63,344 nucleotides of DNA, filler included, from Octopus bimaculoides (GCF_001194135.2; 8 parts of 8 records of this genome joined end to end with filler, not necessarily neighbours in it), one strand, 5' to 3'; positions 310-47,984 are shown, counted from the first letter of the whole stretch. Notes: generated from the letters alone by a model not told the origin. Numbers and translations are program-made.

Positions 310-336
310 TTAGGGATAGAGGCGCGGCGTCATCAA
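310..336 (-). CDS. Putative micro-exon 8 (27 nt, phase 1-1): (F)DDAAPLSL
   Basis: Strong acceptor ttctttgatttgtcttgcag, moderate donor A|gtatca. In frame with the upstream chain. Could instead read on to TAA (…SIKRRLYFEVNL*). Confidence 0.35.
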   Translation of the reverse strand: MMTPRLYP

Positions 337-415
337 CTGCAAGACAAATCAAAGAAGTCCAACCTTTTCATTTATTCTAACAACCATTTTAAATTTCATT
401 ATATTAAACTCACAA

Positions 416-540
416 GGCGCCGAGCTGGTAGAATCGATGAAATGTCGGAGATATATCTTCCTAAATATATTCTGGCTCTTAACATTCAGAGTTCAAACCC
501 TTCCGAGGTCAAAACTTGCCATTTTTCCTGAAGGGATAAA
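416..540 (+). mobile_element. Degenerate tRNA-derived SINE, family S1
   Basis: GGCGCCGAGCTGGTAGAATC head and GAGTTCAAA B-box-like motif. Similar to copies at 32521 and 50463. Confidence 0.7.
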
Positions 541-664
541 TGGCAAACTGACATCCAGTTGAAATGTGGGGAATCGGCCATATCGTCTAACCCCTTGGCT
601 TAAAATTTGTAGCTCTGTGCCTAAATCATAAATCCTTATTTTAAAGTCATTTATAGGCGCTGGG

Positions 665-875
665 GTGGAGGTTCCTGGCTTAGTAGTTAAGATTTTGTAC
701 TCATGATCGTAAGATCGTGGTTTCGATTCCTGGATGCGTTGTGTTCTGGAGCAAAACACTTCATTTCACATTGCCACAGTCCATTCAGCTGGCAAAAATG
801 AGTAATCCTGCGATAGACAGGCGTCCTGTCTAGGTGGGGAATATATACGCCATGGAAACCGGTAGACTGGCCCTA
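665..875 (+). mobile_element. tRNA-derived SINE, family S4
   Basis: A-box-like TGGCTTAGTAGTTAAG and B-box-like GTTTCGATTCC, then GTTCTGGAGCAAAACACTTCATTTCAC core shared with 30555-30800. Confidence 0.7.
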
Positions 876-1339
876 TAAATCTATATAACTTTACTCTTAA
901 TACATGGGCACTGTATTGGGAGGCAAAAATGCTTTCTGGCATTATGTAATTATAGGCTTGAATATTCCAGGCTTCAAATCTCACCAAAGTTGACATTGCC
1001 GTTCATCATTTTCCGATCATTAAAATAAGTAGATGTGAATTAATATGGCAGATGAAAATCGACTATTGACAAAATACTCCCCAACAAAATTCTTAGCCCT
1101 GCACCATAGTGAAAACCAATCTTAGACTCACTGATCACGACTCAACTTTCATGCATTCACACGAAAACTCGAGATATCACACAGACACATACGCACACGC
1201 AGATACACACATACACACACGCGCGCGCGCACTTACACACACACACGCACACACATACATATACATATATATATACCGATTATGATAATCTCTCCCAGTC
1301 TGATAAAGATGTCTCTACAATTTATTTTTATGTACAACA

Positions 1340-1566
1340 TAGAGAAACTACTTATTTATAGTGATCAAGTGTATGTGGTATATATTAGCTCACTCCCTCC
1401 ATCAAATCGTTGTTGCCTCAGCAAGAGCAAGGTGTACCACACTTCAGGTGTCGAAACGCTTGCAGTGAAACGTGAAAGGATGTGTTTCGCTGAAGACCAT
1501 AGTACACCATTCAGTCCACGAATTGAAACTACGATCATGGGACAACACCCTAACCATCTAGCCATG
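1340..1566 (-). mobile_element. tRNA-derived SINE, S4-related
   Basis: Reverse complement begins GGCTAGATGGTTAGGG…GTTTCAATTC. Body resembles 30555-30800. Confidence 0.6.
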
Positions 1567-1708
1567 AAATATCATGTGTGTGTGTGGGTGTGTGTGTTAA
1601 TGTGAGTTTAGAGGGCTATATTATCCGGGCGGATACCGGTGTAGCTCTGTTAGGCTAACCGCAACGATGATTATTTAACGTCTATCACTACAAGATGTTT
1701 TCACTCAC

Positions 1709-1746
1709 ACTGTATATTCCTCCGATAGGCAATTTCGTGTTCGCTT
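1709..1746 (-). CDS. Putative micro-exon 7 (38 nt, phase 2-1): (I)SEHEIAYRRNIQ
   Basis: Donor T|gtgagtg, weaker acceptor ccatccacag. Open in the frame required by exon 6 and compatible with exon 8. Confidence 0.4.
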
Positions 1747-45389: not shown

Positions 45390-45605
45390 TGGCTTCTAAT
45401 TTAGGCACAAGGCCAGAAATTTTGAGGGGAGGGTTTGGTCGATATCATTGAACCCACTACTTGACTGAGGCTTTATTTCACTGGCCCCGAAAGGAGGAAG
45501 AAAGGTTTAAGTTAATCATGGTTTGTTCGAACTCAGAGTATGAAAACCTGAAACATATGCCACAAAGAATTTTTCTTCGATGTTGTAATGACTCTGCCAT
45601 GTAGG
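45390..45605 (-). mobile_element. Degenerate S1 SINE
   Basis: CTTCTAATTTAGGCACAAGGCCAGAAATTTTGAGGG…GAACTCAG. Confidence 0.65.
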
Positions 45606-45825
45606 CCTAAAAGAACGTGTGATCAAAGTTGGAATGCTTTTGATCACATGTCTGCCTGATCAATGTTGGCTGAGGGTTACACAGTAAAAACGACATATAC
45701 GCATTCGTTCACACTATGCGAACTGTAACATATCGGTCAAATTTAGATGTTCGAAATGCAAAAGTAATAGACATTGTGTTCGTATTATCAATCAAAGTGA
45801 ACAATAGCTGGGGACCAAATCAACA

Positions 45826-45975
45826 TTATAACCTCCGCCTTCGCTAAGGCGGATGTATTGTTTTCAGTCGCGTTTGTTTATTTGTTTATCCGTGGACAAG
45901 ATATCTCAAGAACCGCTGGATGAATTCGGATGAAACTTTCAAGGATGTTGGCCTCGTGACTGAGTGCTCTTGCTT
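45826..45975 (+). mobile_element. DINE-1/HINE-like non-autonomous element
   Basis: TTATAACCTCCGCC start, perfect hairpin TCCGCCTT-CGCT-AAGGCGGA, GTTT microsatellite and GGACAAGATATCTCAAGAAC core shared with 58300-58400. Confidence 0.6.
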
Positions 45976-47059
45976 ATCGCTAATTCTAAATTATAAATTT
46001 GTTTTCAATTTTCGCGGGTTCAATACAAACACTAGCTTGGTGCCTGGTATGAATAAGACCACGAAAACCTGCAATATGAAAAGAGCTTGGAAAAATAACC
46101 ATAGCGCATCGTCCGCTCGCGGGTTAACGAGGGGCGCATTCTGAATTTAAGTAGAGGGGTCCGTTTGAAAAATATAGTGCAGTCTCCACCCAAAGCCGGT
46201 ACAACTAGCTTCCGTCTTATTCTGGGTGTCATGGGATGAGAATACAAAGAATGCCTGTCCCGGGACCCTGAAGTAGGCCCAAGGGAGGACAACTGTTAGT
46301 AATTGGGAATGGAAAGTGTAATTCCGGTTGCTTCTGATAGGATCCTGCAGAGGAGGTACCTGGGGATTCTACGTCCAAAATCCTCTCAAGAATAGTGGAC
46401 ACAATTCCATGGGTGGATGGGTTCTAATTTTTCATGCGTAAGCAATATTCACATTATTACTTAAACCTACTCCGGCGTTTTTAAATCTATCACTTTTTAT
46501 CTTTATTTTATTGAACTACTGTCTTTGTCAACCTCTGTAGAATCTGTTTTCGTTTAATTTTTGAATCTTAATCATTTGTTGACATTAATCCTTAGATTAT
46601 TATTTTCAACTCATTTAGATATTTGCAATTTCAAACGACGGATTAAATTAGTGTACATTTTTTCCCAGTAACAACTAATGTTTGGTGTCTTGCAGAGCTT
46701 GTTTTCTTTTCGTTTTGAAATCTTAATCATTTTTGAACTTATTTAACCGTATTTTCAAACGGCGGATTAAATAGTTACAAATTCAATCTGATGACTCCGA
46801 TTGAACTTGTCAAAATTAAGCGCATTTGAACCATACTAAGACACTTCATCTAGCCAAATGACTGTCATAGCCGCAGAAACCATAAACTAAAATTATCTAA
46901 TCTAAATAACAGTGTTACTAAGTAACATGAGAGTGAAAACAAAGCTTACGAAGTGATAAAAGTTAAAGATACTAAAGATCCAAAATTATAAACGAAAAAG
47001 CGTTGCAGTAAGTGAGGTTCGAAAAGAAAGAGAAATGACAAAAAATAAAAAATACATAT

Positions 47060-47330
47060 TGTTTATCTTTATTTGTTTCAGTCACTGGACTGTGGTCATG
47101 CTGGGGCACCGCCTTAAAGGGTTCAGTCGAGCAAATCCACTCCAAAACTTATTTTTGAGTTTGGTATTATTTTATCAAGGCGGAGAGCTGACGGAATCGT
47201 AAGTACGATGAACCGAATGTTCAGCGGCATTTCTTCCGGCTGTTTACATTCCGAGTTCAAATCATATCAACATAAACTTTGCCTTTCAGCCTTTCGGGGT
47301 CCATAAAATAATGTGCCTGTCAGGTACACC
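47060..47330. mobile_element. S3 part (minus, ~47060-47165) and S1 SINE (plus, ~47175-47330)
   Basis: Both match the respective families elsewhere in the window. Confidence 0.65.
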
Positions 47331-47565
47331 TTTCTCAATGTGATCGGCTTGAAAAATTGTTAATACACTAGGATATATTCCTACTTTTCTTAACATGAAA
47401 CCAATGGTAGCCTTAATCCAGAAATAAAGAAATTATATCCACCTATGTGGTGTTGAGCACTCATTTTCATCGTTTGACATTTACGAATTTATATATGTAT
47501 ATTTTAAGCTGCATCTTTTAAAGCTTTATGCAAACACAAGTCGGTATTAAGAACCGACAACTTAC

Positions 47566-47569
47566 CCAT
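47566..47569 (-). CDS. Putative start-codon exon (UTR ~47570-47613/47622; coding ATG-G)
   Basis: Donor ATGG|gtaagtt. A at -3 and G at +4. In-frame TAA 9 nt upstream. Acceptors cttcag or attacag. Confidence 0.5.
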
Positions 47570-47984
47570 AATTATTTAAGCGGAAGTTACAACAAAAGTT
47601 TCCCAGAATTCAACTGAAGTGCCTGTAATTGTGATTTACAGACAGAACTTTCTAGAAATTAATTACCTTGTCCATTTAGACGGTTATTTAGTTAATTATT
47701 TAATCTCAGATTAGCCCTGACCGAGCAGAGCTATAATCAATGATTGGCACTATAAACCACGTCGCAATTAGACAGTAATGTATGATTTCAAAAAAAAATT
47801 AGCTGCTATTTCTAGCATATGGAGTGTCCAATAGGTGATATATTGTTGACCACGGTTGGTTTTTTAGTAATAGATGCTGATGCAGATGTAATGCGTAGCA
47901 CATGGGTGAGAATGTTTTATTGGTAAATAAAAGTTTGTGAAACTATGAGGTAAATATATGTATAATAACTGTACTACTTCAGGT

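Follow-up and report, generated by a model that had tools for sequence, protein, structure and literature searches.

Eight very short pieces on the minus strand of the window (the whole stretch of Octopus bimaculoides DNA that was analysed, 63,344 nucleotides, filler included) can be joined into one stop-free frame, and on this basis a micro-exon gene had been proposed. The reading we favour, with a probability of about one half, is that the chain is a chance mosaic and not a gene, that is, a series of short non-coding stretches bounded by AG and GT which were chosen to share a frame. The window would then consist of repeat-rich non-coding DNA, one real intronless gene of the OTU type and transposon remnants. 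No gene need be present for such a chain to arise: someone scanning the sequence could start from strong donor words, pair each with the closest AG upstream, and retain whatever fits the frame and yields a Cys/His motif of protein-like appearance.

The description of the chain was reproduced in most of its details. The pieces were found on the minus strand where they had been placed, with coding lengths of 4, 9, 26, 30, 29, 57, 38 and 27 nt, an AG precedes the seven downstream pieces and a GT follows all eight. Re-splicing gave the 220-nt join and its 73-residue peptide, without any stop. Around the ATG, position -3 is A and position +4 is G, and three codons before it stands an in-frame TAA. 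Hence coordinates, ends and open join stand, while the excess over chance which they were thought to show does not. The pieces are as follows:

47566..47622, minus strand: candidate exon 1, 57 nt from the AG at 47623-24, the final 4 nt coding and containing the ATG; donor in the top 0.5%
39408..39416, minus strand: candidate exon 2, 9 nt, with a T-rich acceptor and a weak donor
28230..28255, minus strand: candidate exon 3, 26 nt, with a weak donor, a 49-nt AG-free zone and three CTAAT branch-point-like words
19508..19537, minus strand: candidate exon 4, 30 nt, with a strong donor and a weak acceptor; CxxH
12011..12039, minus strand: candidate exon 5, 29 nt, with a strong donor and a poor, A-rich acceptor; CxxH
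8819..8875, minus strand: candidate exon 6, 57 nt, the highest-scoring piece, with two NAG acceptors in tandem (8878 and 8881)
1709..1746, minus strand: candidate exon 7, 38 nt
272..336, minus strand: candidate exon 8, with a good acceptor at 336, a poor proposed donor at 309 and an open frame to the TAA at 272-274

The introns between these pieces would measure 8149, 11152, 8692, 7468, 3135, 7072 and 1372 nt. Six of the seven cross gaps, intron 7 alone being gap-free, and the chain contains 15 gaps in all (3,318 N), namely the five assembly linkers that had already been reported and 10 further runs of N. All eight pieces lie outside tandem repeats and outside repeats present twice in the window, and exon 3 falls inside a 103-codon stop-to-stop frame (27957-28268). 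An inverted repeat at 1784-1975 (87-nt, 83% complementary, with an 18-nt loop), which is MITE-like, stops 38 bases short of candidate exon 7 on its upstream side. As regards exon 8, the proposed piece (310-336) is indeed followed by GT, but its donor, GTATCA, is no better than a random GT. Since this donor is poor and the frame continues for 38 bases to the TAA at 272-274, the piece is better read as the last exon of an 85 aa product. A U12-type donor at this position was rejected by eye. The read-through end carries at 275-300 (minus strand) a KRRLxF word, which we take to resemble a cyclin-binding RxL motif and which may be chance.

The main argument put forward for a gene, that the phases chain and no stop is met, proved to be weak. 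Chains starting at an ATG and continuing without a stop through six further YAG...GT pieces of 9-60 nt were counted on both strands: with GTRAGT donors only, 1,679 were obtained on the minus and 9,440 on the plus strand, figures which rose to 8.4e7 and 3.8e8, respectively, with GTRAG donors and to about 1e13 with GTRA donors. Since open chains number from thousands to trillions on either strand, a stop-free join carries little weight. The sequence-only reading itself cautioned that short GT-AG pairs arise by chance, and hundreds of such pieces are present on both strands. Moreover, the frame is barely constrained, because most of the pieces are open in two or three frames (exons 3, 5 and 7 in all three, exons 2, 4 and 6 in two). 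When the six inner exons were permuted, 181 of 720 orders were stop-free, and with all seven 852 of 5,040; with a random entry phase the six inner pieces would be open with a probability of 0.30 and all seven with a probability of 0.10. Blind picking gave open chains in 1,760 of 100,000 cases (about 1.8%), so that the chain would be notable only if the frame had played no part in its choice. Of 3,000 chance chains on the minus strand, 36.5% equalled or beat the peptide in amino-acid usage and 45.7% in first-position G; this test, run with approximate background amino-acid frequencies, is weak, since the real OTU gene itself does no better.

The quality of the splice signals bears on a second explanation, a real octopod gene of very short exons which is un- or poorly annotated, and which we regard as possible though somewhat doubtful. 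In such a gene, ordinary spliceosomal splicing would take out introns of 1.4-11.2 kb, exon 8 would be the last exon, and the product would be a cytosolic protein of about 85 residues; a small interaction module would hold one zinc ion through Cys12, Cys15, Cys27 and His30 (or His18), and intron 1 would harbour the OTU gene, nested in antisense orientation. Donors and acceptors were scored with approximate generic weight matrices rather than octopus-trained ones, and on this scale the donors of exons 1-8 ranked in the top 0.5, 5.5, 8.3, 0.8, 0.5, 0.7, 3.5 and 57 percent of the 3,590 minus-strand GTs. The four donors in the top 1% (exons 1, 4, 5 and 6) speak for a real gene, but the acceptors of exons 3, 4, 5 and 7 scored below zero, which speaks against it, and in the combined splice score exon 6 alone of the seven acceptor-bearing pieces came within the top 40 minus-strand candidates (pool size, 131 on the minus vs 157 on the plus strand). 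The long AG-free zones and the branch-point words also count in favour of a gene: the zones measured at least 11 nt at all seven acceptors (p about 0.016; mean 26.9 vs 17.6 nt, p 0.09) and CTRAY words were enriched (p about 0.015; three of the four words belonging to exon 3), the zone minimum and the word enrichment being two among six post-hoc tests. Pyrimidines near the acceptor amounted to 8.1 of 15 vs 7.2 (p 0.15). To these can be added the good Kozak context with its upstream stop, the stop and the AT-rich poly(A)-like words beyond exon 8 (ATTAAA at 67), and an exon GC content of 41% vs 36.5% for the window. A gene on this strand is nevertheless disfavoured by the fact that splice words and base skew gave no minus-strand excess across the span, GTRAGT words numbering 16 vs 16 on the two strands and TTTYAG acceptor-like words 47 on the plus vs 31 on the minus.

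The most suggestive feature of the putative protein is its rare Cys/His pattern, which spans exons 3-5. The 85-residue product has Cys at positions 12, 15, 27 and 48; residues 12-15 form a CxxC, whose first Cys is supplied by exon 3, and exons 4 and 5, which share the same phase and lie 7.5 kb apart, contain CxxH. The pattern CxxC...Cxx[C/H] appeared in 11 of 4,000 chance chains on the minus and 24 of 4,000 on the plus strand, and in 38 of 2,194,840 strict triples on the minus and 496 of 1,769,837 on the plus strand, exons 3-4-5 being one of those 38. Furthermore, of 86 candidates that passed the strict GTRAG criterion (47 on the minus and 39 on the plus strand), exons 4 and 5 were the only ones whose open frame contains Cxx[C/H]. 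Against the weight of these figures stands the fact that the tests were defined post hoc, once the peptide had been seen, from a motif which is one of many eye-catching possibilities. Dozens to hundreds of chance triples within the window carry the same pattern, and the pieces may have been chosen for it by the earlier reader. Taken with the acceptor features, the pattern lends modest support to the reality of the core formed by exons 3-7.

A third explanation is that some of the pieces, most likely 4, 5, 6 and 7, are real exons of a different product and that the ends (1, 2 and 8) are wrong or incomplete. The product could be a longer gene with exons in gaps or outside the window, one read in another frame, or a non-coding RNA. 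The uneven splice quality of the pieces and the scant constraint which their openness places on the frame are consistent with this, as are the 3,318 unknown bases of the 15 gaps, in which further exons can be hidden. Nevertheless, no convincing conventional exon emerged: in a Pfam search of the 300 longest of 639 filtered long frames only the OTU domain and a transposase scored above the cut-off, and a scan of exon candidates of 60-400 nt returned nothing recognisable. We consider this explanation distinctly unlikely.

The searches for relatives told somewhat against a real gene, although with low power, because the single-exon pieces comprise 9-22 residues. None of four single-exon frames matched Pfam and none of three matched PDB. 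The exon-6 frame had no match at E<=0.001 among 1.84 billion representative proteins, a search in which an exact copy of exon 6 would score 8e-5 and whose power is gone after a few substitutions; for exon 3 even a perfect match would score E about 7e3. In the ESM Atlas exon 6 found no usable match, and exon 8 brought up only bacterial leads, all unnamed (0.80-0.81); 75 OTU relatives showed no local match to the joined peptide. At the RNA and contig level, two raw RNA runs (about 6 in 100 of each) and two contig sets yielded no record for 8776-8905, the surroundings of exon 6, a result given no weight in either direction. LIM, B-box, A20, AN1, UBR-box and ZNF593-type fingers were rejected on motif spacing judged by eye. 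No such gene was described in the portions of the literature on microexons in octopus and cephalopods that were available, on which the supplementary exon tables of 10.64898/2026.09.05.749416 could bear, and the phrase "consecutive microexons" did not appear in the text available from the literature matched on that topic.

Three comparisons with known systems which had been suggested for the chain were not sustained. The first, with schistosome MEG genes, fails on exon symmetry, exon number and intron size. According to the available part of 10.1101/2023.06.21.545858, these genes are confined to schistosomes; their exons number 10-20 and mostly have lengths divisible by three, their introns span about 0.1-5 kb, and they encode a signal peptide and vary their isoforms through exon skipping. 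As far as that part goes, the likeness lies in a run of very short coding exons with far longer introns, missed by automatic annotation, whereas the chain has 8 pieces, only three of its six inner exons (9, 30 and 57) are multiples of three, and five of its seven introns exceed 5 kb. In the N-terminal 30 residues the best 11-residue hydropathy was 1.47, with no clear hydrophobic core by the hydropathy window alone. The second comparison, with Yippee/Mis18, would need two CxxC motifs where the chain has one: in the accessible text of PMC4287342, the Yippee/Mis18/CULT beta-tent domains bind one zinc by two such motifs, and what the chain shares with them is a CxxC near the N-terminus with a preceding aromatic residue. 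The third, with the DUSP12 C-terminal domain, is not borne out by the four Cys in 85 residues (further exons may lie in gaps), since the DUSP12/Yvh1 cysteine-rich domain, as given in the part of PMC9404827 at hand, follows a phosphatase domain and carries seven conserved Cys in about 130 residues. For a phosphatase domain no Pfam match was obtained in 300 of the 639 long frames; the chain, moreover, starts at an ATG with an upstream stop. The resemblance to DUSP12/Yvh1 would lie in the aromatic-x-CxxC at the start, a His after it and a Cys further on.

Neural microexons of the eMIC/SRRM4 type, whose inclusion is specific to neural tissue, are usually single cassettes in conventional genes and do not make up a whole gene. 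By the common limit of 27 nt for a microexon, only the pieces of 4, 9, 26 and 27 nt would qualify here. Exon 3 alone, with its weak donor, long AG-free zone and CUAAY words, partly resembles this class as it is portrayed in the available part of PMC8797185, whereas, against the same source, the chain differs in having no long pyrimidine tract and UGC near the acceptor in only one of seven cases (p 0.80). As for its span, octopus genes extending over more than 30 kb belong to the top 14% or so in the portion of PMC7222433 available, by which the chain is large yet not strange for octopus.

The remainder of the window is AT-rich and microsatellite-rich, with 4,207 N. Seven 100-base linkers (44 N, TTAATTAATTAA, 44 N), located at 5293, 8138, 11114, 33315, 43670, 58424 and 61985 and mostly beside microsatellites, are assembly joins and not biology. 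The recognisable features are:

40329..41033, plus strand: OTU cysteine-protease (deubiquitinase-type) gene, intronless, 234 aa; Pfam PF02338, E 9e-13
42989-43668, minus strand: mariner-type transposase (Pfam PF01359), broken, in two frames, interrupted by an assembly linker
56211-56288, minus strand: tRNA-like sequence of marginal score (30.2 bits in Rfam, where the cut-off is 29); called tRNA-Ser GGA by ARAGORN

Transposons aside, the OTU gene is the one gene demonstrated in the window. Its frame runs from 40266 to 41033 (plus strand) with the ATG at 40329, the domain scores 49.3 bits vs a cut-off of 23.3, and the product is an unbroken 100% match to database protein P0006, with an identity of 94% to a protein of Octopus sinensis and of 67% to one of Argonauta hians. 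The catalytic Cys and His motifs are invariant in the five octopod sequences aligned, and by domain and catalytic motifs the predicted protein is a member of the OTU family, differing from named relatives in other molluscs (411-586 aa) in being short and encoded without introns. A 211 aa paralog, 54% identical, is present in octopods and absent from the window; its Argonauta accession carries the next number, so the two may form a tandem pair. More distant relatives bear domains with transposon-type Pfam labels (RT, integrase, Helitron-type helicase). The gene sits within what would be intron 1, on the opposite strand and 0.9 kb from exon 2, a position compatible with a nested gene and equally with free-standing DNA. 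Among the other features, frames at 56714-57457 (plus strand) and 2304-2669 (minus strand) resemble the endonuclease regions of Penelope-type retroelements, and had no significant Pfam match. The tRNA-like sequence, the only Rfam result for the window, lies between inverted-repeat arms (56117-56182 and 56296-56361) and is probably a pseudogene or repeat-derived.

If the chain is due to chance, as we favour, the lesson is one of method: where animal DNA is rich in AT and in repeats, an open frame over hand-picked AG/GT pieces does not testify to a gene. The opposite reading in its full form, an octopod gene composed almost entirely of exons of 4-57 nt, spread over 47 kb and coding for an 85-residue protein with a predicted zinc site assembled from three exons, hosting an antisense OTU gene in intron 1 and representing a hidden class missed by annotation, is in our judgement unlikely. 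If true, it would be a case, in an animal other than a schistosome, of a gene made up wholly of tiny exons and beyond the reach of ORF-based annotation, and would point to cephalopod gene sets from which small proteins of such build are missing.
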